Shown one piece after another: positions 2,321 to 23,272 of a DNA stretch of 64,000 bases. A model generated the notes under the pieces. That model was given only the letters and a program-made list of their open reading frames with translations, was not told the origin of the DNA and did no database searches. The translations under genes were made by a program, and so were the position numbers. The first letter of the stretch is position 1, and each line of letters starts with the position of its first letter. The stretch comes from Candidatus Krumholzibacteriota bacterium (GTDB lineage Bacteria > Krumholzibacteriota > Krumholzibacteriia > LZORAL124-64-63). Where the stretch lies: positions 3,087 through 67,086 of the forward strand of contig JBDLKA010000004.1 of assembly GCA_039714075.1 (NCBI GenBank), given 5' to 3'.

Positions 2321-2327
2321 GCTCCTA

Positions 2328-3572
2328 TCACCGGCCCTCTTCGATCTGCTCGACCAGGGCCTCGAACTGCGTGCGGGCCTGCTCTTCGGAGTACATCCGC
2401 AGATCGTTCAGGTCGCCGTTGATCGTCACGTAGGGCACGCCCGTCGCGCCGGTCATGCGTTGCGGCATTCCGTAGCGGCAATTCGAGTTGTTGGGGCAGG
2501 TCTTGGCGTCGTGGTAGATGATGCCGTCGATTCCGTAGGTCGCGAACATTTTCTTGAGGTAGTCCTCTTTGTAGTTCTCGCCGCGCACGATGAACAGTTC
2601 GGTGTAGCTGCGCGCCATGGCTTCGAAGGGATCGTCCAGGCCCATGGGCTCGAAGATCCAGCTGTTGCAGTAGGTCGACGCCACCACGCAGGCGTGCTGG
2701 CCGGCAAACTGTTCGGCGTGGTCGCGCAGCTTGCCCCAGACGGGCATGCCCTCCCAGTAGAAGCGCAGCTTTTCGTCCTCGACGGCGGCCACGCCGTCGG
2801 CGATGCGCTGCTCCAGTTCGGCGATCAGCACCGGGTAATATTCCTCGGCCGCGGCCGTGCCGCGCAGAACCACCGCCGGCCCCATGTGGATGGTGCAATC
2901 GAAGAACGAAATGGGGCTGGGCTGGTGGGCAGCCAGTTCCAGGACCCGTTTCCACAACAGGGTGCAGCGGTAGGACGAGGCCATCACTTCCTTCAAACGA
3001 TCCATATCGAATTTGCGGCCGGAAATCTCTTCAAGGGTCGGAATCAGGGCCTTGTGCTGATCGATCAACCCGTCCAGGTGGTCCTTGGTAATTTCCTCCA
3101 GCCCCCGCGGGGTATCGATACCGATCAAGGGCACATCCCACTCGCGCTGGTAGAACGCCAGCCAGTCCTGCACATCGCGGCACTGGTTGGTGTTGTAGAC
3201 CAGTACGTCCGCCTTGGGCACGCCCTTGATGCCGAAGGCCTTCATCAGGGGCGTCTGCTGCTTCAGGTACGAGCCCACGTCGCTGGTCAGGTACGAGCAG
3301 ATATCCGGCGAATACCCCCGGGCGTTGGCCGCGGGAATCAGGTCCGCCGCCACGCGCGACGAGCCCAGCACCGCACCGTGATTCTCGGGAAAATAGACCA
3401 GGAAACCGAAGGACCGCAGCAGTTCGGCCGGTCCCACGCTGGTGCACCAGGCGATCAGCGGGCGGTCCGAAGCGGTGGAGTTGGCGGCGGCGTCCAACTC
3501 GATGAAATGCTCGGCCATGAGTTTGCGCATCATGCCGGTGGCCTGGATTTTCTTGATGGGGGTGTCGCTCAC
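2328..3572 (-). CDS. 2-hydroxyacyl-CoA dehydratase / benzoyl-CoA reductase B/C-family subunit (HgdA/BcrB-like, YjiM-like); a lone subunit, 414 aa
   Basis: Clear paralogy to the BcrB-like protein at 14116..15426 (LMAEHF..LRSFGFLVYFPEN..YSPDICSY.. versus [27 protein letters not shown]..). It sits upstream of the activase gene on the same strand. Confidence 0.8.
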   Translation of the reverse strand: MSDTPIKKIQATGMMRKLMAEHFIELDAAANSTASDRPLIAWCTSVGPAELLRSFGFLVYFPENHGAVLGSSRVAADLIPAANARGYSPDICSYLTSDVGSYLKQQTPLMKAFGIKGVPKADVLVYNTNQCRDVQDWLAFYQREWDVPLIGIDTPRGLEEITKDHLDGLIDQHKALIPTLEEISGRKFDMDRLKEVMASSYRCTLLWKRVLELAAHQPSPISFFDCTIHMGPAVVLRGTAAAEEYYPVLIAELEQRIADGVAAVEDEKLRFYWEGMPVWGKLRDHAEQFAGQHACVVASTYCNSWIFEPMGLDDPFEAMARSYTELFIVRGENYKEDYLKKMFATYGIDGIIYHDAKTCPNNSNCRYGMPQRMTGATGVPYVTINGDLNDLRMYSEEQARTQFEALVEQIEEGR

Positions 3573-4155: not shown

Positions 4156-6405
4156 TTATTTGATCAAAACAAGTTTACGGGTCACGGCCCCGTCCACGGA
4201 CTGCAGCCGCGCGAAATACACCCCCGCCGAAACCAGCTGTCCGGTGTTGTCTTTTCCGTTCCAATGGACAACGTAGGAACCGGCCTCTCGATACTCCTCG
4301 ACCAGCGTGCGCACCTTGCGTCCGGCAGCGTCGTGAATCGAAAGGACGACCGGACCCGCTCGTTCCAGTCCGAATTGCATTTCGGTACGCGGGTTGAAGG
4401 GGTTCGGAAACGGGTTGTCCAACCACACCGCGGTCACCTTGTTGCCGGGCAGCAGATTGCCGTCCACCGGGGCGGGGTCCGAGCACTCCCGTCCCAGGAT
4501 CGTCAAGGTGCCGCCGAGCAAATACACATACCCGTGATCAACTTCGGCCTGCCATGCATAGGCACCGGAATGATAATCACCGAGCAGGACAGGCGCCGAT
4601 GGTGAATTCACGTCCACCACGATCATGCCGCTTTGGTATGCCGAAACGTAGGCGGTCTTGCCGTAGACCTCCACGTCCCGGCATCTCCCGAGAGGCAGCT
4701 GACCCACCAGAACAGGAAGATCCCACGAGGCAAGATCATAGATGGAAAGGCCTGTGTTTCCAACAAGATACAGATATCCGCCTGACGCCGTTCCATGGTA
4801 GATATCTTCCGGATGAGATACCGTTGAGACATGGACCGGGGCCAGCGGGGACGCCAGATCAAAAACCGAAATTTCGCCGCCAAAGGGATCGCCGCTTAAG
4901 GCGTAGAGGTGCCCGTCGAGGACGTCCAAAGCCGACAAGGAAAAGCCAAGGTGGTCTCCCACGGCAACCGGGGTATCCGGAATCGACAGATCGTAGACAC
5001 GGAAACCACTCGATTGGATTGCGTACAGGATATCGTCGACAACCAGGCCGTCCACGCGCATCTCGACATCGGTCGCCACGGGATCACCGGTCGGCCAGTG
5101 AAACGAGCCGAAAGTCGAGTGCAGGTATTCGCCATGAATGGCGAATCCAACTTCAAACATGGGTGTGCCGACATTTATAAAAAAACCATGTGAAAAAACA
5201 GGATTTTCGGGGTCACTCAGGTCGAAGACTTCGATAGCCCCGACATCGTACCATTCATCGGAAAGGTCCTCCAAAAAGAAGGCATTCGTGTCCGTAATCT
5301 TAAAGTCCACGGAGGGAATGGCACCCAGGATGTTCGCAGCCGGAGGAGGAACCGTCAGAAGACCTTCGTGATTAACGAGTCTCAGATTATCGAAATAGAG
5401 TAAGCGTTCTCCGACCACTTCCACATGGGCGTTGTCTGCGACTCCGATTCCGTAAACCCTTGTCCAGATTCCGTCAACTTCGGTCAGGTAGTTTACCGAA
5501 CCTTCGGATGGCGCATAGATCATCCCGTTCCCGATGGCAGGTTGGCCGACAATGGGCCGCCCGAAGCTGAAATCCCCCACCTCTTCAATGGCTGCCGGGT
5601 TGGAAAAATCCAGGATCTTCAGGACACTGCTAGAAAGAATGGATCCAAACTGAGAGGGAGGATACTGGTCCAAACGGGCCGCCACCGTCCCGCCTTCGGC
5701 GTCCAGGGCGTCGAACATTTGTCCGTTTGTGGGAGTGGCATAGGTTGTAAATTCACCAAGAAGTACGGGAACGGCCGGTGCCGAAAGATCGTAGGCCCGC
5801 AAAAAGCCCTCGGTTCCAAAGCGACCTCCAACGTACCAGACGCCCGCATCCTCGGCCACACTCAGGGCCCAGTCGACATCGGACAGGGAAACTTCCTCGA
5901 CAGGCGCCGTCGGATCGGAAATGTCGAAAAACCGGAAGCCGTCATCCAGGGCGGCAATGCAGGCAAGACCGCCGACCATCTCCTGATCGACGACTTCGGA
6001 GGCCGAGGCATTCTGCGATCGCTGAACCGGATGGTGCGGATTCGAAAAATCCACCAGCAGCCAGCCACAATTCACGGGATTCGAGGTCTTGAAACCGACG
6101 CTGACCAGGGAGCCCTCGCAGGCGAGGGATGTCGGCCATCCCGCCGAGGAATTGAAATCTCCCAGCACTTCCGGCGCGGCGGCAGGCAAGGCACGCCCCC
6201 AGACCAGGCGCAGACCCGTCCCTGAACCATCTCCGGTGGCGTAGCAGAAATAGTCACCGTCGACCGCCAGTATTTTGAACATGATGGTATCATCGGGAAT
6301 GCTGCCGATTTCGGCCGGCAATTGACCGTAGGGTGTACAATCCGGGGCACCTACAGCCACGGAAGAACAAATGGTCAGCAGGACTATCATGATTAGAGTT
6401 TTCAT
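4156..6405 (-). CDS. Secreted LVIVD-repeat beta-propeller protein with a T9SS type-A C-terminal sorting domain
   Basis: The ORF runs 4156..6450. The signal peptide MKTLIMIVLLTICSSVAVGA begins at M16 (6405). LVIVD-like repeats are present (AYVSAYQSGMIVVDVNSPSAPVLLG). C-terminus NPFNPRTEMQFGL..GVYFARLQSVDGAVTRKLVLIK. Confidence 0.75.
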   Translation of the reverse strand: MKTLIMIVLLTICSSVAVGAPDCTPYGQLPAEIGSIPDDTIMFKILAVDGDYFCYATGDGSGTGLRLVWGRALPAAAPEVLGDFNSSAGWPTSLACEGSLVSVGFKTSNPVNCGWLLVDFSNPHHPVQRSQNASASEVVDQEMVGGLACIAALDDGFRFFDISDPTAPVEEVSLSDVDWALSVAEDAGVWYVGGRFGTEGFLRAYDLSAPAVPVLLGEFTTYATPTNGQMFDALDAEGGTVAARLDQYPPSQFGSILSSSVLKILDFSNPAAIEEVGDFSFGRPIVGQPAIGNGMIYAPSEGSVNYLTEVDGIWTRVYGIGVADNAHVEVVGERLLYFDNLRLVNHEGLLTVPPPAANILGAIPSVDFKITDTNAFFLEDLSDEWYDVGAIEVFDLSDPENPVFSHGFFINVGTPMFEVGFAIHGEYLHSTFGSFHWPTGDPVATDVEMRVDGLVVDDILYAIQSSGFRVYDLSIPDTPVAVGDHLGFSLSALDVLDGHLYALSGDPFGGEISVFDLASPLAPVHVSTVSHPEDIYHGTASGGYLYLVGNTGLSIYDLASWDLPVLVGQLPLGRCRDVEVYGKTAYVSAYQSGMIVVDVNSPSAPVLLGDYHSGAYAWQAEVDHGYVYLLGGTLTILGRECSDPAPVDGNLLPGNKVTAVWLDNPFPNPFNPRTEMQFGLERAGPVVLSIHDAAGRKVRTLVEEYREAGSYVVHWNGKDNTGQLVSAGVYFARLQSVDGAVTRKLVLIK

Positions 6406-6680: not shown

Positions 6681-8648
6681 ATGATCGTCGGCGTCATCGG
6701 TTCCGGCTCCATCGGCCCGGACCTGGCCTATGGTTTTGTCTCCGCCCTGGCCAGCCACCCGGACAGCCGTGTCCTCCTTCACGACATCAAACCCGACGCC
6801 TTGGAGGCCGGCCTGGCCCGCATCCAGGGCTACGTGAAAAAGGGTGTCGATCGTGGCAAGCTCAGTCCCAAGGTGGCCGCGGCCATCGGTGACAAACTGG
6901 TCACGACGCTGGACCTTCCCGACCTGGCCGATTGCGATTACGTGCTCGAGGCCGCCACCGAGGATCTGGGGATCAAGAAGATCATCCTGGGCAACCTGGA
7001 AAAAGTCGTGCGGCCCGACTGCCTGATCGGCTTCGCCACCAGCGGCCTGCCGCGCGCGGTGATCGCCGCGGACACGAAACACCCCGAGCGCTGCTTCGTG
7101 AACCACCCCTTCTTTCCCGCCTGGCGCGCCATGCCCATCGAAGTCGTGCTGTCGGACCACGCCGAGTACAGCGAGCGCATGCTGACGACCTTGAAGCATC
7201 TTGGCAAAGTGCCGGTGATCACCGCCGACGTGCCGTGCTTCGCCGCCGACGACATCTTCTGCAACTACTGCGCCGAGGCCGCGCGCATCCACGTCGAAGG
7301 CGTGGCGTCGGTGTGGCAGGTGGACAAGATCGTCAACGACGCCATCGGCGGCGGTGGTCCCTTCAACGTCATGGACCTGACCCGCGGCAACCTGCTGAAC
7401 GTCAAATGCCTGAAGCTGATGGAAGAAGCCGAGACGGGCAGCGAATGGTTCGCCCCGCCCGAGGTCTTCTCCACCCAGGCCAACAATCCCTGGCTCGACC
7501 ACAAGAACCCCGGTGACCCGTCGTACAGCCCCGAACTGGGCCAGCAGGTGCTGGACCGCATCCTGGCCGTGCTATTGGGACGAACCTATTTCGTGGCCGA
7601 CAACGATATCTGCGACCCGGCGGACCTGAACTGGCTGACGAGCAACGCCCTCGGTTTCAGCAAGGGGCTGCTGGATCTGGCGGCCGAACTGGGCGCCGAC
7701 CGCGTGCACGAGATCTGCACCACCTACGCGGCCGCCAACCCCGGTTTCGAGGTGCCCAAAAGCATTAGCGACCGGGTGCTGCTGGATTTCAAGCGCAACC
7801 TGCAGATCGAGAAGGATGACACCATCGCCACGGTGACCATCAAGCGTCCCGAGGTGTTGAACGCGCTGAACGACCAGACCATGAACGAGTTGAACGCCAC
7901 CTTTGACGAACTGGAAGCCGACAACACGGTGGCCGGCATCGTGGTCACCAGTTACGGCGGCTCGCTGGCGGGCGCCGACATCAACGAACTGGCCGCCCTG
8001 CCCACGCCCGAAGAGGCGGCCGACAAGTGCCGCCGCGGGCACAAGATTCTGCGCCGGATCGAGAACTGCGCCAAGCCGGTGGTCATCGCCGTGAACGGTC
8101 CGGTGCTGGGCGGCGGCGCTGAACTGTCCATGGCCTGCCACGCGCGGGTCGTGGGCCCGGGCCTGATGCTTGGTCAGCCCGAAGTGAACCTGGGGATCAT
8201 CCCGGGTTACGGCGGCACCCAGCGGCTGCCCCGCCTGATCGGGGTGGAAAAAGCCGCGGAAATGGTGCGGACCGCCAATACCATCGGCGCCAAGGACGCC
8301 TGCGCCCTGGGTTGGGCGGTCGGTGAGCCCGCGACCTCTCCAGTCGCGGCGGCCAAGGATGTGATCAAGGCCCACCTGGACGGGTCGGCGCCCATCAAGC
8401 GTCTGGACACCGGACCCATGAAAGTGCCTGCAACATTGCCGGCCGTCGACATCGGCCACCGTTCCCTGGCCATCGACCGCATCCTGACCGATACCCTGTT
8501 CGCCGGACTGAAAACCGACCTGGACAGCGGTCTGGAGCTCGAAGCCGTGGCCTTCGCCCGCTGCAAGGGGACCGTCGATTACGACATCGGCATGACCAAT
8601 TTCATCCAGAACGGACCCCGGGTGCCCGCGGTCTTCATGAACGAATAA
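6681..8648 (+). CDS. Fused 3-hydroxyacyl-CoA dehydrogenase (N-terminal) / enoyl-CoA hydratase (C-terminal) bifunctional protein, 655 aa
   Basis: An N-terminal Rossmann motif VIGSGSIGPDLA (3HCDH family) and a C-terminal crotonase fold (VIAVNGPVLGGGAELSMACHARV). The domain order is the reverse of FadB/FadJ and matches the archaeal Hbd-Crt fusion type. Confidence 0.9.
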   Translation: MIVGVIGSGSIGPDLAYGFVSALASHPDSRVLLHDIKPDALEAGLARIQGYVKKGVDRGKLSPKVAAAIGDKLVTTLDLPDLADCDYVLEAATEDLGIKKIILGNLEKVVRPDCLIGFATSGLPRAVIAADTKHPERCFVNHPFFPAWRAMPIEVVLSDHAEYSERMLTTLKHLGKVPVITADVPCFAADDIFCNYCAEAARIHVEGVASVWQVDKIVNDAIGGGGPFNVMDLTRGNLLNVKCLKLMEEAETGSEWFAPPEVFSTQANNPWLDHKNPGDPSYSPELGQQVLDRILAVLLGRTYFVADNDICDPADLNWLTSNALGFSKGLLDLAAELGADRVHEICTTYAAANPGFEVPKSISDRVLLDFKRNLQIEKDDTIATVTIKRPEVLNALNDQTMNELNATFDELEADNTVAGIVVTSYGGSLAGADINELAALPTPEEAADKCRRGHKILRRIENCAKPVVIAVNGPVLGGGAELSMACHARVVGPGLMLGQPEVNLGIIPGYGGTQRLPRLIGVEKAAEMVRTANTIGAKDACALGWAVGEPATSPVAAAKDVIKAHLDGSAPIKRLDTGPMKVPATLPAVDIGHRSLAIDRILTDTLFAGLKTDLDSGLELEAVAFARCKGTVDYDIGMTNFIQNGPRVPAVFMNE

Positions 8649-8661
8649 ACGGGAGACGAGC

Positions 8662-9945
8662 ATGACCACGAACAGCAAATCCATCGTCATCCTGGACGGC
8701 GCGCGCCGGACGCCGAGGGCCGACATCCTGATCAACAACCGCGAACCCGGTCTGTTCTCGCGCTTTGCGACCACCGCCCTGGGCGGCATGGCCATCAGGG
8801 CCACCCTGAAAAATACGCCGCTGGACAAGGGATTGATCGGCCACGTCATCATGGGGATGGCCTCGCACAGCCATCGCGACAGCATCTACGCGGCCCAGGG
8901 CATGGCCTGGCGCGGCGGCCTGGCCGACGACGTGCCCGCCCTGACGGTGGCCCGCATCTGCGGCAGCGGCGCCGAAGCGGTGGCCGTGGGCATGGAGCAT
9001 ATCCTGGCCGGTATCCGGCACGACCGTGACCGGCCGTTCCTGGTTGTCGGCGGCGGCGAGAGCATGCAGTACCCCTTCAGCGTTTACGGCATGCGCGGCC
9101 AGAAAGTGGGTACGGCGATCCAGAAGTACGGACCGCTGGACCCGCGTGGTCTGCCCCGGGGGTCCATGCTTCAGGATTCCCTGTTGCTGGGCCTTTATGA
9201 TCCGGGCGCCAGCCTGGCCATGGCCAATACCGCCGAAGAACTGGGGCGGCGTTACGAAATCACCCGCGAAGAGGCCGACGCCTTCGGCCATCGCTCGCAC
9301 ATGAATGCCAAGGCTGCCCGTGACGAAGGATTGTTCGCCGAGGAGATCGAGCCGGTCACCCTGCCCGGCAGCGGCGGCGAGGCCGACGTCGTGGTCGAAC
9401 ACGACACCCATATCATGGACAACATCAGCCTGGCCAAGATGAGCCGCTTGTACCCGGCCTTCGAGGCGGGCGGCATCATCACCGCAGGCAACGCCAGCGC
9501 CGTGGTCGACGGCGCGGCGGCCATGGTGCTGGGCCTCGAGGACGATGCCAAGGCACACGGCCTGAAACCTTTGGCCCGGGTGGTCGCTGTCGGCACGGCG
9601 GCCTGCGATCCGCGGATCATGGGCTGGGGTCCGGTTCCAGCGACGCGCATCGCCCTGGAAAAGGCCGGCCTGGCCGGAAGCGACATCGACCACGTCGAAT
9701 TGAACGAAGCCTTCGCGCCCCAGGCCCTGGCCTGCATACGGGACTTTGCCGACATGGGCATCGATCCGGAGAAGGTCAACCCGCAGGGCAACGCCATCGC
9801 GCTGGGCCATCCCCTGGGCGCGACCGGAGCCATCCTGACCCTGACCTGCGCCTACGCCCTGCGGCGCAAGGGCCAACGCTACGGTCTGGTCACGATGTGC
9901 ATCGGCGGGGGGCAGGGAAATTCGCTGGTCATCGAGTCCTTGTAG
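8662..9945 (+). CDS. Acetyl-CoA C-acyltransferase (thiolase)
   Basis: Thiolase signatures: VARICGSGAEAV (active Cys), NEAFAPQALAC, GHPLGATG, and CIGGGQG near the C-terminus. Lies 13 nt downstream of the dehydrogenase/hydratase gene. Confidence 0.92.
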   Translation: MTTNSKSIVILDGARRTPRADILINNREPGLFSRFATTALGGMAIRATLKNTPLDKGLIGHVIMGMASHSHRDSIYAAQGMAWRGGLADDVPALTVARICGSGAEAVAVGMEHILAGIRHDRDRPFLVVGGGESMQYPFSVYGMRGQKVGTAIQKYGPLDPRGLPRGSMLQDSLLLGLYDPGASLAMANTAEELGRRYEITREEADAFGHRSHMNAKAARDEGLFAEEIEPVTLPGSGGEADVVVEHDTHIMDNISLAKMSRLYPAFEAGGIITAGNASAVVDGAAAMVLGLEDDAKAHGLKPLARVVAVGTAACDPRIMGWGPVPATRIALEKAGLAGSDIDHVELNEAFAPQALACIRDFADMGIDPEKVNPQGNAIALGHPLGATGAILTLTCAYALRRKGQRYGLVTMCIGGGQGNSLVIESL

Positions 9946-9978
9946 TCAGTAAACATCAACCTGTGAAAGTCGGTCGCC

Positions 9979-10395
9979 ATGTCCTTGTCCTACCATTGCC
10001 CCAATTGCGACAGCCTGCTGAATCCCAACGTGCGCGTGGTGCTCATCGCCCGCTACGGTGAAAAACAGGGCATCGTCCTTATGAGTTCGAAGCCCGGGGA
10101 CTACCAGGTCATCTGCGACAAGGGCTTGTGTCACGACGTGGCCAAAGGGGATGTCGTCGATTTCAGCTGCCCGGTCTGCCACGGGTCGCTGACCTCGGAG
10201 TCCCATGACCACTTTGCCGAACTCAAGGTCGTGAACTCGCAAAAGGAAGGGCACGAACCCTGCCTGCTGCGCTTCAGCCGGGTCAGCGAAGAGCATGCGA
10301 CGTTCCTGTACGACGGGGACTCGGTGAAGGAGTTCGGGGAAGAGGCGGGACTTTTCAGTAAAGAGATGACGATCGAAGGGGACTGGGGCTGGTAG
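9979..10395 (+). CDS. Small Cys-rich hypothetical protein (two CxxC pairs, Zn-ribbon-like), 138 aa
   Basis: CPNC at residues 7-10 and CPVCH at 64-68. Same strand as, and 33 nt downstream of, the thiolase gene. No recognisable family. Confidence 0.5.
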   Translation: MSLSYHCPNCDSLLNPNVRVVLIARYGEKQGIVLMSSKPGDYQVICDKGLCHDVAKGDVVDFSCPVCHGSLTSESHDHFAELKVVNSQKEGHEPCLLRFSRVSEEHATFLYDGDSVKEFGEEAGLFSKEMTIEGDWGW

Positions 10396-12732
<2,337 letters not shown>

Positions 12733-12836
12733 GGTTTGCCTCTCTGGTGTTGCCCGACACCGTCCCACGATAGTCCGGGAGAGAAACAAAAACAACCGTC
12801 AGCTGCGGCCCTTTGTCCGGCTTTGTCCACATTCTC

Positions 12837-12865
12837 ATTGACATTCGGCTCCCGTTTTTCTAGAA
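12837..12865 (+). promoter_or_regulatory. Sigma70-like promoter TTGACA-N17-TAGAAT, plus operator-like palindromes, upstream of the Bcr-like operon
   Basis: A -35 TTGACA and a -10 TAGAAT separated by a 17-nt spacer. A 10-bp palindrome CGAACGTTCG lies just downstream (~12872..12881). An 8-bp inverted repeat TAGTTGAA-gtt-TTCAACTA (~12906..12924) abuts the start codon. A direct repeat CTTTGTCC-gg-CTTTGTCC (~12811..12828) lies upstream of the -35. Coordinates are +/- 2 nt. Confidence 0.4.
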
Positions 12866-12925
12866 TGTATTTCGAACGTTCGTTCTAAATACACAACTTG
12901 TTGTAATAGTTGAAGTTTTCAACTA

Positions 12926-14119
12926 ATGACAAAGGATTCTCCCGTGACCCCTTCCCCCCGCACCCAGATCGTCGACTGGGCCACCGAAATCTACGAAGAC
13001 CTGGATTTCACCGCGTCCCGGCAGTGGCTGGACGACCACCCGGGCAGCAAGGCCGCCGGGTTCCTGCCCGTCTACGCCCCCAAGGAGATCATCCATGCCG
13101 CGGGCATGCTGCCGGTGGGCATCCACGGCAACGGGGCCATCGAGATCATCCGCGGCGACGCCTACTACCAGAGCTATATCTGCCATCTGCCCCGGTCGGT
13201 GGTCGAATTCGCGGAATCCGGCCGCCTGGATTTCCTGTCGGCGGCCTTGTTTCCCTCGACCTGCGACGTGATCCGCAACCTGTCCGGCATGTGGCAGGTC
13301 ATGTTCCCGGAGATGTACGTGCGCTACCTCGACCTGCCCCAGGTGGCGGATCCGGAACTCGGCGCCAGGTTCTGGCAGCGGGAACTGAACGTGATCCGGG
13401 AGGAACTGGGCCGCGTGGCCGATGTGAACATCACCGATGACCGGCTGCGGGCGTCGGTCGCGGTGTACAACGAGGTGCGCGAGGTCATCGGCCAGTTATA
13501 TGGCCTGCGCAACAAGCAACCCTGGAAGGTGCCCACCGAAGAATTATACCTGCTGCTGCGGGCAGGGGAAGTCGTGGCGCCGGAAGTCTTCATGGAGAAG
13601 GCCCGCGCCTACCTGCAGGCCGCCGAAAACAGCGACGATCCCCTCAAGGACCGCACCCGGGTGATCATCGTGGGCTCGTTCTGCGAACAGCCGCCCCTCG
13701 GGCTGATCAAGACCATCGAACGCGCCGGCTGCTACATCGTCGACGACGATTTCCTGGCCGGTAACCGCTTCCTTACCAACGCCGTGCCCGTCGCAGGTGA
13801 TCCCGCGGAAAACCTGGCCACTACGTTCACCAGCAGCGCCGTCAAGACCTCGGTCCTGTACGAACCGGATCCCGACGGCAAGAAGAACCTGATGCAGCAG
13901 CGCGCCAAGGCCGCCGGCGCCGACGGCATCATTTTCTGCGCCGCCAGTTTCTGCGATCCCGCCCTGCTGGACAGGCCCATGCTGCGCGACGGGGCCGAAC
14001 AGGCCGGCATCCCCTGCATCGCCTTCAAGTTCGCCGAGAACTCGGGGCAGTTCCAGCAGTTCCGCGAGCAGGCGGGCACCTTCAGCGATTCGATCAAACT
14101 GTGGGGAGAGGCGTCATGA
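12926..14119 (+). CDS. Benzoyl-CoA reductase / 2-hydroxyacyl-CoA dehydratase family subunit, BcrC/BadD/HgdB-like (397 aa)
   Basis: First gene of a 4-gene cluster with sizes 397/437/426/290 aa, matching BcrC/B/A/D. C-terminal Cys-containing motifs. The stop overlaps the next start (ATGA). An alternative GTG start lies 18 nt downstream, after AAGGA. Confidence 0.8.
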   Translation: MTKDSPVTPSPRTQIVDWATEIYEDLDFTASRQWLDDHPGSKAAGFLPVYAPKEIIHAAGMLPVGIHGNGAIEIIRGDAYYQSYICHLPRSVVEFAESGRLDFLSAALFPSTCDVIRNLSGMWQVMFPEMYVRYLDLPQVADPELGARFWQRELNVIREELGRVADVNITDDRLRASVAVYNEVREVIGQLYGLRNKQPWKVPTEELYLLLRAGEVVAPEVFMEKARAYLQAAENSDDPLKDRTRVIIVGSFCEQPPLGLIKTIERAGCYIVDDDFLAGNRFLTNAVPVAGDPAENLATTFTSSAVKTSVLYEPDPDGKKNLMQQRAKAAGADGIIFCAASFCDPALLDRPMLRDGAEQAGIPCIAFKFAENSGQFQQFREQAGTFSDSIKLWGEAS

Positions 14120-15426
14120 GCGACCAGAAAACAGACATCCGCCAGGCCCAGAAGGACGATTCGATGATCATCCAGAAAGAGATGATCGCCGAGCACTACA
14201 AGCGGCTCGAGCGGGCGCCCGAAACCAAGGAACCGGTGGTCTACACCTTCGTGCCCGGCAACCTGACCGAGCTCATCCGCTCGTTCGGCTGCCTGCCCGT
14301 GCTGCCGGAGATCAACGCCCTGCAGTCGGGCATGCGGGGAAAAAGCCGCGAATATATCGCCGAAGCCGAAAAGCGCGGGCACTCCGAGGACGTCTGCACC
14401 TACGTCAAGTGCGACATCGGCATGGCCATGGCGGGCAACATCGGCCCCACCGGCACCAAGCTGCCCAAGCCCGACCTGCTGCTGCTCTCGTACACCGGCT
14501 GCTACACCTTCATGAAATGGTTCGAACTGCTGCGCGAGGAATACGATTGCCCCTGTGTTTTCCTGCACGTGCCCTACCAGGGCGAAGGCAACATCGAACC
14601 CGAGCACCGGGACTACATGATCAAGCAGATCAAGGAAGAGGTCATTCCCGCGCTGGAGAAAATATCCGGCCGCAAGTACGACGAGGATGCCCTGAAGGAG
14701 CGACTGCGGTTGAGCGTGCAGGCCGAGGACGATCTGGTCTGGGTGCTGCAGTCCGCCATGAAAAAACCCTCGCCCATCGACGCCTACTTCGGCGCCGTGT
14801 ATTACGTGGGTCCGATCTTCAGCGCCTTCCGCGGCACCGAAGAAGGCGTCAATTATTACCAGGCGCTGCGCCGCGAAGTGCAGGGACGCCTGGATGCCGG
14901 GCTGGGTCCGGTCGCTCCCAAGGGTCCCATGGCCGAGGAGAAATACCGCCTGGTGGTCGAAGGCCCGCCCAACTGGACGCACTTCCGCGAGTTCTGGCAG
15001 ATGTTCGCCGACGAGGGCGCGGTGGTGGTGGCCTCGACCTACAGCAAGGTCGGCGGCACCTACGATTTCGGTTTCCGGCACAACCCGGATGACCCCCTGG
15101 GCACCATGGGCGACTACTGCGCCGGCTGCTACACCAACCACAACCTGCCCGGCCGCATCGACATGCTGTGCCAGTACCTGAAGGATTACGAGGCTGACGG
15201 GTTTTTGATCAACTCCGTCAAGTCGTGCAACTCGTTCAGCGCCGGCCAGTTGATGATCCTGCGCGAGGTCGAGAAACGCACCGGCCTGCCGGGCGGTTTC
15301 ATCGAATCGGACCTTGTTGATCCGCGCTACTTCTCGGCCGCCAACATCAAGAATCGCCTGGAGAGTTACCTGCAGATGGTCGAAGCCCGCCGCGCCGGCG
15401 CTTCGCAGAAAGGCCTGTCCGCATGA
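14116..15426 (+). CDS. Benzoyl-CoA reductase / 2-hydroxyacyl-CoA dehydratase family subunit, BcrB/BadE/HgdA-like (437 aa)
   Basis: The ORF runs 14101..15426. An ATG at 14116 overlaps the upstream stop. Paralogous to 2328..3572. Conserved Cys-rich stretches ([33 protein letters not shown]). 4-nt overlap with the next gene. Confidence 0.8.
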
Positions 15427-16703
15427 GCATCGCCTGTGTTGTCGGGACGGACCTCGGTTCGACCACCACCAAGTCGGTCATCCTCGATGGTGACGGAAAC
15501 ATTCTCGGGCGCGGCATCACCAACAGCCGCTCCGATTACGATCGCGCGGCCAAGGTCTCGCGCAGCGAAGCCTTCATCACCGCGCGCTTCAACCTGCTCC
15601 AGCGCGAGGTTGAACAGGCCGCCGGACCCGAGGTGCTTCAGCGTCTACTGGACGCCTTCCGGCTCGAGCAGACCCTCGCCCAGCTCGACCGGTTGCACCA
15701 ACTTGTGTCCGGCGCCCTGGCCTTCGGCGTGCCCGGTGACCTGAGCGTCGCGGCCACCGAAGCCGTGAAAACCATCGTCACCCGTATCCAGCAAAGCGAA
15801 CTGAAACGTTTCGAGGATCCTAATCCGCCCAAGCGCTCGGACTTCTTCCGCGACACCGTGGGTTCGGCCTGGAGCACCATCAGCGAAGAGATCGGCGATC
15901 CGGCGGGCGTTAGCTTCGACATGCTGCTCGGCCTGTACGACAAGTGCATCATCCAGGTCGAGAACGAACCGCTGGCCCTGGGCTTCGGCGATCATATCGA
16001 AAACGCCCTGGAGCGCATCGGCGGTTCCGAAGCCGTCAAGACCGGGGTGCGCCACGCCGTCGAGGCCGAATTCGACGTGCGCGGGGAAGTGGGCACCGGT
16101 TACGGCCGGCAGCGCCTGCCCTTCCCCAAGGAGATGATCCGTTCGGAAATCCTCTGCCACGGCCTGGGCGCTTCGATCATGTTCGGCGGCACCCGCACCG
16201 TGCTGGACATCGGCGGCCAGGACACCAAGGCCATTCAGGTCGACGAGAACGGCATCGTGACCAGCTTCCAGATGAACGACCGGTGCGCCGCCGGTTGCGG
16301 ACGGTACCTGGGCTACATCGCCGACGAGATGAACCTCGGGCTGCACGAACTGGGACCTTTGGCCCAGGAAAGCACCCGCACGGTGAAGATCAACTCCACC
16401 TGCACCGTTTTCGCCGGGGCCGAACTGCGCGAGCGCCTGTCCCTGGGCGAAAAACGCGAGGACATCCTGGCCGGCCTGCACCGCGCGATCATGCTGCGGG
16501 CCATGAGCCTGCTGGCCCGCTCGGGCGGCGTCGAGGACGAGTTCACCTTCACCGGCGGCGTGGCCAACAATCCGGCCGCGGTGTCGGCTCTGCGCGAACT
16601 GGTGACCGAAAACTACGGGGACAAGGTTCTGAACATTTCCCCGGACAGCATCTACACCGGCGCCCTGGGCGGCGCCATTTTCGCCCACAGGAGCGCGAAC
16701 TGA
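15423..16703 (+). CDS. BcrA/BadF-like ATPase subunit (long BadF/BadG/BcrA/BcrD-family ATPase with an insertion, 426 aa)
   Basis: N-terminal [17 protein letters not shown] and a second half carrying CAAGCGRYL and TGGVANN. Its length, insertion and position match the alpha subunit of class-I benzoyl-CoA reductases. Confidence 0.85.
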
Positions 16704-17575
16704 TGAGTACCGAAAACACTACCAAAACAGCAACGGTCACCGCCGGCCTGGACGTCGGCTCGGGTGCGGTCAAGGCCGTGGTCATGGGGTTCGAAGACGG
16801 CCGCGAAGAACTGCTGTCCAAGGTCAGCACCCGGATCCGCCGCCGGGACATCAATGATGTCGTTGACGAGGTCTTCGGCCAGGCGGTCGCCGAAGCCGGC
16901 GTCGATGGTCTGAACTACGTGGCCACCACCGGTGAAGGCGAGGACATTCCCTTCGCCACGGGCCACTTCTACGGCATGACCACCCATGCGCGCGGCGCGC
17001 TTTTTCTCGATCCGCGCGCCAACGCCGTGCTGGACGCCGGCGCCCTGCACGCCCGGGCCATGGCCATGGACAACCGGGGCAAGGTCCTGAACTACAAGAT
17101 GACCAGTCAGTGCGCGTCCGGCTCCGGACAGTTCCTGGAGAACATCGCCCGCTATCTGGGGGTCTCCCAGGCCGAGATCGGCGACCTTTCCCTGGCCGCG
17201 GACAACCCGGAAAAGTGCAGCGGCATCTGCGCCGTGCTGGCCGAGACCGACGTGATCAACATGGTCTCGCGCGGCATCAGCACCGAGAATATCCTGCGCG
17301 GAATTCATGAAAGCATGTCCGGGCGCTTCGTGCGCCTGCTGCGCTCGCTGGACTACGGCGAAGTGATTTTCGTCAGTGGCGGCCTGGCCGGTGATGTGGG
17401 TCTGGTCAAGTCGTTGGCTGACGAATTCGCCGGGCTGAAAAGCCTGAAGGGGCCCGTGCCCGAGATCGCCACCCACCCGGACAGTATTTTCGCCGGGGCG
17501 ATCGGGGCGGCCATCTGGGGGAATTTCCGGCATGGCAAGCTGGGGCTGGAAGGGTTTGCCTGGCAGGCGGCCTGA
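16703..17575 (+). CDS. BcrD/BadG-like ATPase subunit (short BadF/BadG/BcrA/BcrD-family ATPase, 290 aa)
   Basis: The ATG at 16703 overlaps the upstream stop (TGATGA). The track lists it only within the over-extended ORF 15944..17575. GLDVGSGAVKAVV and CASGSGQFLE motifs. Confidence 0.8.
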   Translation: MSTENTTKTATVTAGLDVGSGAVKAVVMGFEDGREELLSKVSTRIRRRDINDVVDEVFGQAVAEAGVDGLNYVATTGEGEDIPFATGHFYGMTTHARGALFLDPRANAVLDAGALHARAMAMDNRGKVLNYKMTSQCASGSGQFLENIARYLGVSQAEIGDLSLAADNPEKCSGICAVLAETDVINMVSRGISTENILRGIHESMSGRFVRLLRSLDYGEVIFVSGGLAGDVGLVKSLADEFAGLKSLKGPVPEIATHPDSIFAGAIGAAIWGNFRHGKLGLEGFAWQAA

Positions 17576-17686: not shown

Positions 17687-17977
17687 ATGAAAAATAGAAT
17701 CCTCAGTCCATGGTTGTTGGCCGTGATGATCGCCACGCTTGCCGCGGGAACCGCTCTCGCTGACATCCCGGATGGCGATGAGCACCCCTGGGACAGCGAG
17801 TCCACAGACCCTGTTCTCGAGGGGGACGAGCATCCCTGGGACAGCGAGTCCACCGATCCAGGTATCGAGGGAGACGAGGGTCCCTGGGACGCCGATTCTG
17901 CCGGAACGCTGGATGCGGCCTCGGCGGAAGCGCTGTTGTTTGCGGAGCAGTTAGCCGAGTTGGCACAGTTGCCGTAG
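17687..17977 (+). CDS. Small secreted acidic tandem-repeat protein (96 aa; signal peptide plus GDEHPWDSESTDP repeats)
   Basis: Strong RBS AGGGAGGGA. Signal peptide MKNRILSPWLLAVMIATLAAGTALA. Two near-identical 13-aa repeats plus a degenerate third (39-nt DNA tandem repeat). Followed by an intrinsic terminator. Confidence 0.6.
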   Translation: MKNRILSPWLLAVMIATLAAGTALADIPDGDEHPWDSESTDPVLEGDEHPWDSESTDPGIEGDEGPWDADSAGTLDAASAEALLFAEQLAELAQLP

Positions 17978-18071: not shown

Positions 18072-20762
18072 CTACTTCTCGAGCGTGAGCAGATAGATGT
18101 CGCCGTCGTCCGTGTCCTGGGTGTAGACGATTCGCGTGCCGTCGTGCGACCAACCGCCGTTGTGGACGTGCCACCGGCCCTGGCCGTTTGTAATCCGTTC
18201 GAGGTCACCTACAGGTTTGGGCAAGCCGGACCCGGAGGCCGGGACCTCCAGTTCGAGCACGAACAGTCCCTGGTCGAAGTGGCTGGCCGATTTCACCAGG
18301 GCGAGGGAACCGCCGTCCGGCGCCAGGATCATTTCCGTGTGGGGTCCGGTAAAGAGCAGGACTTCCTCACCTGTCTGAAGATTGGCGGCCCGCAGTTCCA
18401 TCTTGTCGCCGGCCATGGTGCTATACACGATGCGATTGCGGTCCAGATACCAGTCGAAACGCAGGACCCCGGGAAATACGGACTTCGCCTTGGTGTCGCC
18501 GTGACGATCTGTCATCCACAGGGATGTTCCCCCGATATCAGGCAGTACGTATCCGATCGACTTGCCGTCCGGCGTCCAGCGGATGCTGAGGCTTACCGCC
18601 CAGACAACGCTGGGAATTGATATGTCCCGGATCGAGAGGTGCTCGGGAGGCCCGCTTCCGTCGGCTTTGGCGATCCAGATATCCGTGGGCCCGTCCCGGT
18701 TGGAGAGGTAGGCAATCTCCTCGCCGTCCGGTGACCAGGCCGGGAGTATGTCCATGGACGGATGTTTGGACAGGTTCAGTTCCTCGTGGGTCTCAAGGTC
18801 CACGATCCAGATTTCCTCGTTTCCGGTCCGGGTCGACTGGTAAGCGATACGATCTCCCCCGGGAGCATATCGTCCGACGAAGTTGTCGGCGGTCCAGGAG
18901 GTCAGCTGTTCGGACTCGCCGGTCGAGACGTCCACCGTGTACAGGTCCGTCTGATGGCTCCACCGCGTGTAGACGACAAGTCCGTGGGAAGAAACACTGG
19001 GATACCAGTCCTTTCCGCCGCCGAAGGTAAGCTGGCTCAACTCCCCCGAGTCCACGTGGATACCCCAGATATTCTCCATCCCACTTCTGTTGGACCCGAA
19101 GATGACGTACTGATCTCCGAGCAGAAACGAGGGGTCCATGTTTGCGAATTCGTCCGCCAGGAGTTCGTGTTCCTCCCCACCCGGAACCGATATCAGGAAC
19201 AATCTCGATGTTCCCGCGTGGGATCGTGTAAACACAATCCACTTGCCGTCGAAAGAGAAGCTCCCACTCAGGTCACGAGCGCCTGTCGGGGGAAAGGTGA
19301 CCTGCTTTTCGTCCCTGGTCTCGAGGTCCACCTTAAAAATCGCCACATCACCGTTATCCAAAATCCGGGAATACAGCAGACTCTTGTCCCCCGGAGCCCA
19401 AGGCATGGATCCGAGCAACCGCACCGCGTCCCAAAAATCGTTCAGGTAGGGAACCCGGGTCTCGACCAGTTTGGTCGATTTGCCTCCCAGGGGCGAGATC
19501 GTGAAGATATCACAATAAATCCCATCCCCCCCCAGATAGGCGATCTGGTTCCCGTCGCGGGACCAGCGCGGCAGATCCTCGTCTCCGGGATCATCGGTCA
19601 GACGCAACTTTTGTCCGCCAAGGCGCGATTGCATGTACAGGTCCATCGTCCCGTGTTCAGTGTGGCCGTAGGCGATGAATTCCGAGTTGGGCGACAGATT
19701 TCCCGAGAATTCAGGGCCTCGGGCAAAGGTGATGCGATCTGTTCCACCCGGAGAAAGCTTCCCGCCCGATTCCCAGGGCTGCATGACCAAGAGTGAAAGG
19801 GCGGCGGCGATGACCACCACAACGGCAACCAACCACGCCGTGCGAGCCGAACCCGGCTTTTGATCGCGTTGTTTCTGTTGGGCAGGGGCGGTGAATCCGG
19901 AATCGCGTTTGAGCATCTTGAGGTCGGCCCGGATTCCGGCCGCGCTCTGATAGCGCAGTTCGGGATCCTTCTCGAGGGCCTTGTTGACGATGCGCTGCAA
20001 CTCGGCCGGAACCTTCCGGTTGAGCTTCACCGGCGCCGTCGGGGCCCGATTCAGGATCGCATCGAACATGGCCGCGGACGTGTTCCCCGCGAAGGCGCGC
20101 CGCGCCGTGATCATCTCGTACAGAACCACTCCCAAAGAGAAAATGTCGGTCCGGTGGTCGAGGCCCTTTCCCAGCGCCTGCTCCGGCGACATGTACGACA
20201 CGGTGCCAACCACCGCCCCCGGATTGGTCATGTCCAAGGCGGTCATGGTTGCGCCATCGAGTCCCGGCTCCTGTTCCGTGTCGGGAGCGAGCTTGGCCAG
20301 CCCGAAATCCAGCACCTTGGCCTGGCCCCGGTCGGTAACGAAGATGTTGGCCGTCTTGATGTCCCGATGAATGATCCCCTTGGCGTGAGCGGCGTCCAGC
20401 GCATCGGCGATCTGGAGGGTGAGATCGACCGCTGACTCGATCGCCAGGGGTTGGCCGCCGATGTGTTGCTGAAGGGCCTGCCCCTCCAGCAGTTCCATGA
20501 CGATGAACCGCCTGCCTTCCCACTCGCCGATGTCGTAAATGGAGCAGATGTGGGGGTGGTTCATCGCCGAAGCGGCGCGGGCCTCGCGAATGTGACGATC
20601 GACATTCTGTGGTTTCGTGGCCACCTCGTCGGGAACGAATTTCATGGCGACGTTGCGCCCAAGACGCGTGTCCTGGGCCTTCCACACCACACCCATCCCG
20701 CCTTCGCCGATCTTCTCGATCAGGCGGTAGTGCTGTATGGTTTGACCAGACTGGATATTCAC
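18072..20762 (-). CDS. Eukaryotic-like Ser/Thr protein kinase with a single TM and a periplasmic TolB-like tandem beta-propeller (WD40/PD40 repeats), 896 aa
   Basis: GTG start directly abutting the upstream stop (TAGGTG). Hanks kinase motifs [33 protein letters not shown] after ~residue 300. C-terminal PD40-like repeats. Confidence 0.9.
19880..20762. repeat. Direct repeat copy A (5' kinase-domain coding region of the tandem Ser/Thr kinase genes)
   Basis: Matches 22181..23063 at a constant offset of 2301 nt. The spurious ORFs 20451.., 20609.. and 19981..20370 reappear near-identically at 22752.., 22910.. and 22282..22671. The 5'-most ~470 nt (20292..20762) appear identical, and identity decays towards the 3' side. 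Confidence 0.8.
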
Positions 20763-23093
20763 CTACTCGTCCCCCTTGTGTTCCGCCAAACCCTTCAATC
20801 CCGCCATCTCAAGCCCCTCCATCAGGTGGTCGGTCAAAGCGACCGTCATGGCGTGACGTTCAATCAATTCCCCGCGAATCTCACCGACAGGCCGAGCCCA
20901 CAGCGTGAGCATCTCGTCCAGCGCTGGCCCAGCATCCCCGGAACGGCCGAGTTGCCCGTAGGTTGCGGCAAGATAAAGCGGGCCGCGAAAGTCACCGCCA
21001 CCCAAATCAACATCCCTCAATTCAGTCAGGGCCTGTTCGTGTCGCCCGTGTCGATAGTGGTCCAGGAAAAAGGGCGTCCTTATCCAGCCAGGGGGATTCG
21101 GATCAAGTTCGATCGCTCTGCGCACCATCGGCAGGCTGTGTTCGAAGTCCTCCAACTGGGCAAGGAAGAACCCGAACATGGCCAACCACATGGTGTCGTT
21201 CGGGTTCAGGTCGATCGTCCGGTAAGCTTCGATCTTGGCGCGTTCATAATCCCCGCTGGTGAAATGGGTGAGAGCCATGGCTCCGTGGGCCACATGGTTC
21301 CCCGTGTCGAGCCGTACCGCCTTTTCGGCAAGCTCCAGCGCCCGTTCGAGAGCATCATATTCGTCCGAACGCTCGTTCCAGCGATGGTGGGTTTCCTCGG
21401 CATATATGTAGGCCAGCCAGGCCAGGCCGTCAGCGTAGTCGGAGTCGTCTCCGATCACACGTTCCAGGCAATTACGCGCCGCCAGATGATTTTCCGGTGT
21501 GTGTACATGCAGGTATTCGTACGTCCGCAGGACGCAATCATAACTGTCCAGACTCGCCGGAGGTTTACGTCTGGAACCGGGCAGTCCCGCCCTGGTCAGG
21601 GCTCCGTACGATCCGGCGATCGCGCTGACGACCTGTTGCGTCAACTCGTCCTGCAGCTCGAAAAGATTGGCTACCGTCAGATCACGCTCGTAGTTCGTTC
21701 CCCATATCAACCGCCTGTCGCCGGAATCGGAGAGCTGGACATTGACCTTGACCTGATTCCCTGCTTTGCGGACGCTTCCCTTCAACAGATAACGATTTAC
21801 AGGCAGGGTACCGGCCCGGCCAAGGTCTTCATCGCGATCCTCGTAGCTTTCCGTCGAACTGTGGGCGATCACGGTCAGCCTGCTGTAGCGAGAGAGCTCC
21901 GTGACGATATCCACGGTCAGTCCTTCGCTGAAGTACTTCTGATCCGTATCCCCACTGGCATTGGTGAAGGGCAGAATGTCGATCGTCGGACCTCTCGAAG
22001 AGGTCTGTTGGACACCTGCGTCAATCCCCTTTTCTGGAGCAGTGTCTGCCGGGGTTGCGTCTCGCCCGGACAGCCCCTTCAGCAGAATCACCGCCACCAC
22101 CGCGGTCAGCAACACCCCGGCCACTCCCCACAGGCCCACTCGGAGCCGGTCCGGGCCGGCAGCAACCGGTGGCGGGGTCACGGCGGTCATGCCTGCGGAC
22201 GAGTCCCGCTGCATTCGCTTCAGATCGCTCCGCAGTTCGGCTGTGCTCTGGTAGCGCAGCTCGGGATCCTTCTCGAGAGCCTTGTTGACGATGCGCTGCA
22301 ACTCGGGCGGGACCTCCCGGTTGAGCTCCACCGGCGCCGTCGGCGCCCGGTTTAGGATAGCGTCGAACATGGCCGCGGACGTGTTCCCCGCGAAGGGGCG
22401 CCGCGCCGTGACCATCTCGTACAGAACCACGCCCAAAGAGAAAATGTCGGTCCGGTTGTCGAGGTCCTTACCCAAGGCCTGCTCCGGTGACATGTACGAC
22501 ACCGTGCCCACCACCGCCCCCGGAGTCGTCATGTCGAGCGCGGTCATGGTGGCATCGTCGAGTCCCGGCTCCGGCGTTGCTCCGGACGCGAGCTTGGCCA
22601 GCCCGAAATCCAGCACCTTGGCCTGGCCCCGGTCGGTAACGAAGATATTGGCCGTCTTGATGTCCCGATGAATGATCCCCTTGGCGTGAGCGGCGTCCAG
22701 CGCATCGGCGATCTGGAGGGTGAGATCGACCGCTGACTCGATCGCCAGGGGTTGGCCGCCGATGTGTTGCTGAAGGGCCTGCCCCTCCAGCAGTTCCATG
22801 ACGATGAACCGCCTGCCTTCCCACTCGCCGATGTCGTAAATGGAGCAGATGTGGGGGTGGTTCATCGCCGAAGCGGCGCGGGCCTCGCGAATGTGACGAT
22901 CGACATTCTGTGGTTTCGTGGCCACCTCGTCGGGAACGAATTTCATGGCGACGTTGCGCCCAAGACGCGTGTCCTGGGCCTTCCACACCACACCCATCCC
23001 GCCTTCGCCGATCTTCTCGATCAGGCGGTAGTGCTGTATGGTTTGACCAGACTGGATGGACACGAATTTTCTCCCCCTGGTCGTCCCGACCAT
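20763..23093 (-). CDS. Eukaryotic-like Ser/Thr protein kinase with a single TM and a periplasmic TolB-N-like plus TPR-like sensor domain, 776 aa (or 766 aa from the GTG at 23063)
   Basis: The kinase domain is identical to the downstream paralogue over its first ~157 aa. The periplasmic part shows an [17 protein letters not shown] motif followed by TPR-like helices. A GGGGGAG RBS precedes the GTG at 23063. Confidence 0.9.
22181..23063. repeat. Direct repeat copy B (5' kinase-domain coding region of the tandem Ser/Thr kinase genes)
   Basis: See copy A. Includes the RBS region, and divergence begins immediately upstream of the start codons. Confidence 0.8.
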
Positions 23094-23272
23094 CCCAGAG
23101 CATGATATTCCGCTCGAAAGTGGTATTTCGAGCTCGATTCATATCATATCATACTAATATGTATTTGTTAAGAAAGGGGCGCTATGCACTCCGACTGGCC
23201 GATTTGAGACATTTTTGATATTAATTGGTGGGTTCCAGGCGTTACCGCTCATTCCTGAATTCTGGAGACCCT

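Follow-up and report, generated by a model that had tools for sequence, protein, structure and literature searches.

The 64,000-nucleotide (nt) stretch analyzed here (the window), from a contig of a Candidatus Krumholzibacteriota bacterium, carries a benzoyl-coenzyme A (benzoyl-CoA) reductase operon, bcrCBAD. This operon is preceded by a near-consensus sigma-70-type promoter and, over its predicted transcription start, by a conserved palindromic operator, CGAACG-N2-CGTTCG. We consider it probable that a TetR-family repressor released by an aromatic acyl-CoA controls bcrCBAD from this start-site operator. The promoter and operator are conserved in sequence and geometry among related bcr loci, and in other genomes the same operator co-occurs with genes of one TetR subfamily and with genes of benzoyl-CoA pathways.

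The promoter and operator lie in a 193-bp gap between genes (12733-12925) that forms a local AT-rich trough, with 36 to 45% G+C in a window that has 61% overall. A first-pass annotation of the sequence had picked out four elements here, a promoter, a perfect 10-bp palindrome, an 8-bp inverted repeat, and an 8-bp direct repeat, and each of these was recovered where it had been placed. The near-consensus sigma-70 promoter, TTGACA-17-TAGAAT (12838-12866), matches the consensus at 11 of 12 positions, is the sole promoter match between 12300 and 13300 (shuffled sequence gave a mean of 0.3), and has both boxes conserved in the Krumholzibacteriota clade. Transcription from it is predicted to start at approximately 12872-12875.

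A scan with the BcrC protein, taking one genome per species, yielded 80 related loci (L001 to L080), and the closest BcrC relatives came from Candidatus Krumholzibacteriota assemblies (84 to 88% amino acid identity). The upstream regions of L001 to L004 share with the window TTGACA, the 17-nt spacer, TAnnAT, three further bases, and TTTCGAACGTTCGTTCTAAA, while the rest differs. Across nine clade loci, pairwise identity was high in the 20-bp operator (0.90), the -35 box (0.81), and the -10 box (0.69) but low in the spacer (0.39), in the 37 nt past the operator (0.37), and upstream of the -35 box (0.31). Judged by these alignments, clear purifying selection within the region is confined to the promoter and the palindrome.

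The operator core, CGAACGTTCGTTCT (12873-12886), departs from CGAACG-N2-CGTTCG at one position and begins 7 nt past the -10 box, so that it spans about +1 to +14 counted from the predicted start. In the 20-bp form the arms TTTCGAACG and CGTTCTAAA are complementary at 8 of 9 positions. Upstream of bcrC, CGAACG-N2-CGTTC was present in 31 of the 80 loci, or 33 when one mismatch was allowed, and most of these sites are the perfect 14-bp palindrome. The 33 site-bearing loci are labeled as Krumholzibacteriota, Gemmatimonadota, Acidobacteriota, and Myxococcales (Myxococcota); the motif is absent from the proteobacterial bcr loci L062 to L079. A TTGAC stands 30 to 43 nt upstream of the operator in 32 of the 33 sites, and the operator therefore begins a few bases past a -10-like element. 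A position-weight matrix built from these 33 sites has a single match in the 64-kb window, which scores 30.4 bits; no other position exceeds 12 bits. Other matches in the window to the operator and to the first-pass motifs fall in coding sequence at chance frequency.

The first-pass annotation had recognized the symmetry at this position as a perfect 10-bp palindrome, CGAACGTTCG, at about +1. That 10-mer is indeed there (12873-12882), has no second exact copy among the 64 kb, and recurs in every locus whose spacer is TT, so it might be read as a short operator, or the target of a palindrome-reading protein, centered at 12877/12878. In orthologous sites, however, the half-sites are fixed and the central two bases vary (TT, TC, TA, AT), and the exact 10-mer exists in the window only because the spacer there is TT. 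Sites with TC, TA, or AT spacers lose the 10-mer (TC turns it into CGAACGTCCG) but keep CGAACG-N2-CGTTCG. Conservation is moreover symmetric about 12879/12880, as TTTCGAACG TT CGTTCTAAA, and not about 12877/12878, and a 10-bp palindrome arises in the region by chance with P = 0.14 (this and the chance values for the other repeats come from 5,000 dinucleotide-preserving shuffles of the region). We regard a 10-bp functional unit as very improbable; on the comparative evidence, the symmetric unit is the 14- to 20-bp CGAACG-N2-CGTTCG repeat. In the window a repeat finder extends this palindrome to a longer inverted repeat, TGTATTTCGAACG-TT-CGTTCTAAATACA (12866-12893), which the first pass had overlooked and whose outer TGTA/TACA parts are not kept in relatives. 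A semiconserved (T)AAC-N2-GTT also lies 5 to 8 nt 3' of the operator in the window, L002, L004, and L006, with AACGTT in L001; an auxiliary half-site is one possible role, a contribution to the leader helix another.

The gap had been described as a divergent control region between bcr and a hybrid histidine kinase gene. The kinase ATG (12732-12730, minus strand) does form its left edge, but a kinase homologue adjoins bcr in 0 of the 80 loci, and the gene upstream of the bcr promoter changes from locus to locus, being replaced by a small protein gene after a thiolase, a membrane protein gene, or an AT-rich noncoding stretch. Because of this turnover we assign the promoter and palindrome to bcr, with which they travel whatever lies upstream. 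By the same comparison the kinase is a lineage-specific neighbor, and the divergent arrangement is an accident of the window's lineage. Three smaller observations concern this flank. In L001, about 1.8 kb of AT-rich DNA without a convincing open reading frame (ORF) (4200-6015) separates a small upstream gene from the bcr promoter, and the histidine kinase occupies the corresponding position in the window. A 7-nt inverted repeat, ACATTCT/AGAATGT (12829-12835/12862-12868), brackets the -35 box and shares bases with the -10 box. The window and L003 have CACATTC in common 5' of the -35 box.

The first-pass annotation had suggested looking nearby for a TetR, MarR, or BzdR-type regulator. No TetR, MarR, Rrf2, or BzdR-type/XRE gene was found in the 64-kb window with Pfam on approximately 40 genes or with phmmer, and the Pfam scan of these genes returned no DNA-binding regulator domain; the proposed repressor would therefore have to be encoded outside the 64 kb. 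When phmmer was seeded with TetR(B), AcrR, MarR, and IscR and run on the window and the 80 loci, it returned two Rrf2-like genes, in proteobacterial loci without the motif (L066 and L079), and one weak MarR match. All-against-all ORF clustering of the 80 loci gave no regulator and was swamped by shadow ORFs in GC-rich DNA.

A candidate regulator came from a metagenome scan with TCGAACGNNCGTTCGA, which returned at least 120 loci (L081 to L200). With a GC-rich spacer this 16-mer codes for the peptide I-E-R-A-F-E/D (IERAFE) and for that reason turns up often inside genes, a caution for any genome-wide count of the motif. We therefore interpreted only sites in an AT-richer, noncoding context, about 35 among the matches listed. 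Such sites repeatedly lie 1 to 100 nt 5' of a gene for a 190- to 240-amino-acid protein with a TetR helix-turn-helix and the signature GY..(A/T)SMRD(L/I)S..SG(M/V)SLAG(L/M)YYY, followed by MKVLSHE and then LFGMMNW. A profile built from ten of the operator-linked proteins detected this subfamily in 16 of the 120 metagenome loci listed; in 15 of them no more than approximately 120 nt separate the operator from the gene start, and the promoter is laid out as in the window.

In metagenomes the operator also accompanies other genes. It stands 5' of boxC (TIGR03222, 792 bits against a cutoff of 712) and had (TIGR03201, 446 against 339), as well as of boxB-like, oah-like hydratase, and bcrC-like genes. 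L178 links operator, box genes, and regulator in one gene order: operator, boxC, boxB (722 bits against 499), TetR, and then hydratases and a dehydrogenase. Elsewhere the genes that come after the TetR gene are those for an enoyl-CoA hydratase, an aldehyde dehydrogenase, and a 3-oxoadipyl-CoA-thiolase-like protein, or else a BoxB-like gene stands there. The aldehyde dehydrogenase was considered as BoxD, but this assignment could not be made, as its best models score below their cutoffs. Among the bcr loci, L020 has a second operator copy, TATCGAACGTTCATTCGATA (12309-12322), approximately 95 nt 5' of a 4-hydroxybenzoyl-CoA-reductase-like gene for a flavin adenine dinucleotide-binding flavoprotein (molybdopterin dehydrogenase subunit). 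A weaker operator-like site in L005, GTTAGAACAGTCGTTCGAAA (2005-2024, 18.4 bits), lies 84 nt 5' of a hydratase/dehydrogenase gene. The window has no equivalent before its own hydratase/dehydrogenase gene at 6681, where a candidate consisting only of the fragment TTTCGAAA fell under the threshold. The operator was also seen 5' of a gene for a VhuG-like hydrogenase small subunit of 308 amino acids (L094, position 10648; L184, 11342; L185, 5488), a possible sign that the regulon includes an electron-supply module.

The TetR subfamily is large, with more than 7,500 clusters at E < 1e-20, and its members combine Pfam TetR_N with TetR_C_24 and bear generic names only; all curated NCBIfam TetR models score far under their cutoffs, so no functional name follows. 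The best Protein Data Bank sequence matches to the operator-linked proteins have E values of 5e-19 to 2e-8 and include 3whb, "Fatty acid metabolism regulator protein"; 3vpr and 5k7f we take to be PfmR and AibR. The nearest solved structures, distant relatives only, thus include fatty-acid/acyl-CoA regulators such as FadR, which by analogy is consistent with a CoA-thioester ligand.

Whether the regulator belongs to this subfamily has to be weighed against a regulator of some other family, with the TetR association elsewhere reflecting a shared or convergent motif. In favor of a non-TetR regulator, no TetR gene was found in the window or in any of the 80 bcr loci, and proteobacterial bcr loci do use other regulators, such as the Rrf2-like genes noted above. 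Against it, 15 independent contigs among the matches listed carry the site within approximately 120 nt of where a gene of this one TetR subfamily begins, and their promoter geometry agrees as well. Box, had, oah, and bcrC-like genes also have the site in front of them, L178 joins all three elements, and the half-site length and spacing fit both TetR dimers and the PaaR consensus described below. We judge a non-TetR regulator unlikely and, from these associations, think that the TetR subfamily probably binds the operator.

In the mechanism that we favor, RNA polymerase carrying a sigma-70-type factor would recognize TTGACA-17-TAGAAT and initiate at the predicted start. A dimeric TetR-family repressor would bind CGAACG-N2-CGTTCG (12873-12886; extended, 12870-12889), covering the start site, and would block initiation or promoter escape so that bcrCBAD stays off. 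Release would be brought about by an aromatic acyl-CoA, most simply benzoyl-CoA, the thioester common to the box and bcr branches. The repressor would come from the TetR_N plus TetR_C_24 subfamily, regulate itself through the same operator, and be encoded with box genes in other genomes. The first-pass annotation had likewise expected tight repression and induction of the reductase genes, from a strong promoter bracketed by operator-like sites. The presence of an operator at about +1 of a strong sigma-70-type promoter does suggest repression and induction; the bracketing is not supported, because the 8-bp inverted repeat and the direct repeats are unconserved.

Several points weigh against a TetR repressor acting here. 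The regulator-operator pairing rests on association in other organisms, because no gene of this TetR subfamily, or of another DNA-binding regulator family, was found in the window or up to 6 kb from bcr in the 80 loci. The mismatch in the window operator, T for G, falls in the right half-site. The start site is a predicted, unmapped position derived from the promoter, and benzoyl-CoA is guessed to be the ligand from the genes that make up the regulon. Of the metagenome matches, which number at least 120, roughly two thirds are chance occurrences inside genes, with GC-rich spacers. Finally, the TetR-linked aldehyde dehydrogenase, hydratase, and BoxB-like genes score under equivalog cutoffs, and the pathway to which they belong could be a box- or paa-like variant.

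Two characterized TetR repressors resemble the proposed system in different respects. PaaR of Thermus thermophilus HB8 (TTHA0973) represses phenylacetate genes, is released by phenylacetyl-CoA, and has the operator consensus CNAACGNNCGTTNG (PMC6651687, PMC9493321). The likeness is one of operator consensus, matched at 14 of 14 positions by the cross-phylum CGAACG-N2-CGTTCG and at 13 of 14 by the window copy; the regulon of an aromatic CoA-thioester pathway and the proposed release by an aromatic acyl-CoA are PaaR-like as well. PaaR differs in its host, Thermus rather than Krumholzibacteriota, Gemmatimonadota, Acidobacteriota, and Myxococcota, and in its targets, paa genes rather than bcrCBAD, box, had, and oah. 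In addition, the selection-derived PaaR consensus, AACnAACGTTnGTT, has a different spacing. MbdR of Azoarcus sp. CIB is an autoregulated TetR repressor of the 3-methylbenzoyl-CoA (mbd) cluster, which is of the class I reductase type; its operator extends across the -10 box and transcription start of sigma-70 promoters, and its inducer is the first CoA thioester of the pathway (PMC4424350). MbdR is thus a precedent for a start-site TetR operator on such a cluster. Its operator, ATAC-N10-GTAT, is unrelated to CGAACG-N2-CGTTCG, however, and the mbdR gene lies inside its own cluster, whereas no regulator gene was found near bcr here.

The other described regulators of this metabolism are of different kinds. 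BzdR/BoxR, BadR, BadM, and AadR are described as controlling proteobacterial bzd, box, and bad genes in response to benzoyl-CoA or related signals (PMC6678401, PMC9795900). Their families (XRE-shikimate-kinase-like, MarR, Rrf2, and Fnr) have no representative in the window, and their operators differ. The hallmarks of BzdR/BoxR control are an XRE plus shikimate-kinase-like gene beside the operon and operator repeats that contain TGCA; the window has no BzdR-type gene, and no TGCA occurs in 12733-12925.

The operon itself is a Thauera-type class I benzoyl-CoA reductase operon, which gives a definite identity to what had been called bcr-like. Its subunit genes follow the order C-B-A-D, the bcrD ATG overlaps the bcrA stop codon, and C, B, and D pass their equivalog models while A falls just below its own cutoff (Table 1). 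The longest bcrC ORF begins at ATG 12926. We favor a start at GTG 12944, an in-frame codon that the first pass had overlooked, because L001 to L003 share this GTG and its Shine-Dalgarno sequence and because the codon equivalent to ATG 12926 is AAG in L001; on this comparison bcrC probably starts at GTG 12944 with AAAGGA at 12931-12936.

The choice of start codon changes the place of the 8-bp inverted repeat, TAGTTGAA-GTT-TTCAACTA, which had been described as ending 1 to 2 nt before the start codon and overlapping the ribosome-binding site. The repeat is real, but it abuts ATG 12926 directly, and with translation from GTG 12944 it would lie inside a leader of approximately 70 nt, ending 5 nt before the ribosome-binding site and not overlapping it. 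One possibility is that a separate regulator uses it as a second DNA operator, in which case two repressors would bracket the promoter. An 8-bp inverted repeat with a loop of at most 10 nt is expected by chance with P = 0.028, and a search for further copies, as the first pass had advised, turned up no other in the 64 kb, even when up to 3 mismatches were tolerated (0.04 expected). The sequence of the repeat is unconserved in relatives, though, which at this place in the leader have different hairpins, also with 3-nt loops, and no regulator gene lies near it. In L005 and L007 these hairpins differ by paired changes, and the G-U pairs of L007 work only in sense-strand RNA; it is because of these changes and G-U pairs that we favor an RNA element over a DNA site. 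Leaders of eight clade loci also fold into more structure than shuffled sequences (combined Fisher P = 0.004), and the helix in the window can be extended to 12899-12932, at -10.3 kcal/mol. A second operator thus strikes us as quite unlikely, and by these foldings and alignments the repeat is more likely an mRNA leader stem-loop. Our best guess is that the stem-loop acts in mRNA stability or translation. A role as intrinsic terminator or attenuator was rejected, as the stem is AT-rich and followed by ATGACAAAGG, with no T-run, and a scan gave no plus-strand terminator. Rfam returned no match in 12600-13100 at E <= 1.

The direct repeat, CTTTGTCC-gg-CTTTGTCC, sits just upstream of the -35 box, as had been reported, and ends 9 nt before it; the two copies are the only ones in the window. 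These repeats might be a response-regulator site that links the hybrid histidine kinase to bcr or to the kinase's own promoter, as a second, global control like AccS/AccR in Azoarcus. The geometry, with a 10-bp period next to the -35 box, is typical of activator or response-regulator sites and fits the OmpR/PhoB type (10- to 11-bp periodicity), and an 8-bp direct repeat within 12 nt has a chance P value of 0.032. The kinase, a hybrid PAS protein, is transcribed divergently next to bcr, and the Azoarcus bzd genes are reportedly controlled by a redox-sensing hybrid kinase (PMC6456745). The repeats are nevertheless absent from the orthologous promoters of L001 to L008 (in L003 the upstream gene ends approximately 25 nt before the -35 box), the kinase is not a neighbor of bcr in the other loci, and the window encodes no DNA-binding response regulator, the sole nearby receiver domain being that of the hybrid kinase, which lacks an output domain. 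A third, inverted copy, GACAAAGG, overlooked in the first pass, overlaps the ribosome-binding site; it could be a coincidence and may be a by-product of AAAGGA. We consider a response-regulator site improbable. Their role may lie with the kinase promoter or with an input peculiar to this lineage, or they may have none.

Since the single elements are only modestly unlikely (P = 0.03 to 0.14), everything but the promoter might in principle be chance symmetry in an AT-rich spacer. The 10-bp palindrome, the 8-bp inverted repeat, and the 8-bp direct repeat are jointly expected with P = 0.0008, however, and the operator is kept across phyla at a fixed position and tied to a regulon. As a general account chance symmetry is hardly credible; on the comparative data it is already refuted for the operator and possible for the direct repeats.

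Table 1. Positions of the features discussed, in window coordinates
Feature	Position	Strand	Remarks
Hybrid histidine kinase gene, 778 amino acids	10396-12732	-	Divergent; membrane region, PAS, HisKA, HATPase, and receiver domain
Direct repeat CTTTGTCC-gg-CTTTGTCC	12811-12818, 12821-12828	+	10-bp period; about -63 to -46
-35 hexamer TTGACA of bcr promoter	12838-12843	+	Identical in 8 of 9 clade loci
-10 hexamer TAGAAT	12861-12866	+	17-nt spacer from -35; TAnnAT pattern kept in clade
Window-specific palindrome extension TGTATTTCGAACG/CGTTCTAAATACA	12866-12893		13-nt arms with TT between; repeat finder
Operator TTTCGAACG-TT-CGTTCTAAA	12870-12889		20-bp imperfect palindrome; covers predicted transcription start
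Mini-palindrome ACAAC-TT-GTTGT	12892-12903		Read from aligned upstream regions
Leader stem-loop TAGTTGAA-GTT-TTCAACTA	12907-12925	+	-6.3 kcal/mol; z = -2.9
Third, inverted repeat copy GACAAAGG	12928-12935	-	Overlaps ribosome-binding site
Shine-Dalgarno AAAGGA for GTG start	12931-12936	+	AAAGGA or AAAAGGA 6 to 7 nt 5' of GTG in L001 to L003
bcrC, benzoyl-CoA reductase subunit C	12944-14119	+	Probable start, GTG 12944; TIGR02263, 484 bits (cutoff, 421)
bcrB	14101-15426	+	TIGR02260, 678 bits (cutoff, 487)
bcrA	15423-16703	+	TIGR02259, 552 bits, slightly under cutoff of 578
bcrD	16703-17575	+	TIGR02261, 354 bits (cutoff, 313)

The wider surroundings of the operon hold further genes of interest. 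On the plus strand at 6681-10395 are a fused 3-hydroxyacyl-CoA dehydrogenase/enoyl-CoA hydratase (655 amino acids), a thiolase (427 amino acids), and a 138-amino-acid protein without a family match, a set that lies 5' of bcr in all Krumholzibacteriota-clade loci. In Gemmatimonadota the dehydrogenase/hydratase fusion gene is divergent from bcr, and the operator is inside their common intergenic region. A second set of the same enzyme superfamily as the reductase, a HadB/HgdB-like dehydratase subunit (414 amino acids) with an activase (261 amino acids), is encoded on the minus strand at 1535-3572; all of its models score under the equivalog cutoffs, and in L005 and L006 this pair is divergent from the hydratase/dehydrogenase gene. 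Downstream of the operon, 111 nt past bcrD, a 96-amino-acid ORF on the plus strand (17687-17977) has a strong ribosome-binding site, GGGAGGG, and matches neither Pfam nor NCBIfam. Directly 3' of the bcr operon comes a row of three genes for large Ser/Thr protein kinases, which carry PD40 beta-propeller or TPR tails (18072-25972). Many predicted secreted proteins with FlgD_ig, Por_Secre_tail, or CHU_C C-terminal sorting domains (type IX secretion) are encoded at 33874-60836, which would fit an origin in the FCB group.

The published account of bcr genes in Krumholzibacteriota comes without an analysis of regulation (PMC10936416). Our literature search found no description of this operator or of a TetR regulator for bcr or box in these phyla, and the motif retrieved only papers on CpG oligonucleotides. 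The kind of system is well known and its mechanism conventional, while this particular member appears to be undescribed. To our knowledge, the control of anaerobic benzoate degradation has been elucidated for no more than a few Proteobacteria (BzdR, BadR/BadM, AadR, and MbdR), and we know of no control described for the bcr genes of abundant uncultured soil and sediment phyla. More speculatively, the TetR subfamily and CGAACG-N2-CGTTCG might together form a benzoyl-CoA-sensing master switch across Acidobacteriota, Gemmatimonadota, Krumholzibacteriota, and Myxococcota, governing box (the oxygen-dependent route), bcr (the oxygen-sensitive route), had/oah, and 4-hydroxybenzoyl-CoA-reductase-like genes, with a structured leader adding posttranscriptional control in the Krumholzibacteriota clade. 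We hold this wider possibility only tentatively and think it rather doubtful as a whole.

A specialist is unlikely to be surprised by a repressor of this type, but the promoter-operator module and its candidate TetR protein offer a testable model for when ring reduction would be switched on in these organisms. The operator sequence can serve as a tag for finding regulon members in metagenomes, and the TetR subfamily is a candidate benzoyl-CoA-responsive sensor for engineering. Together these would provide a concrete and broadly usable way to study how uncultured phyla regulate aromatic ring reduction.

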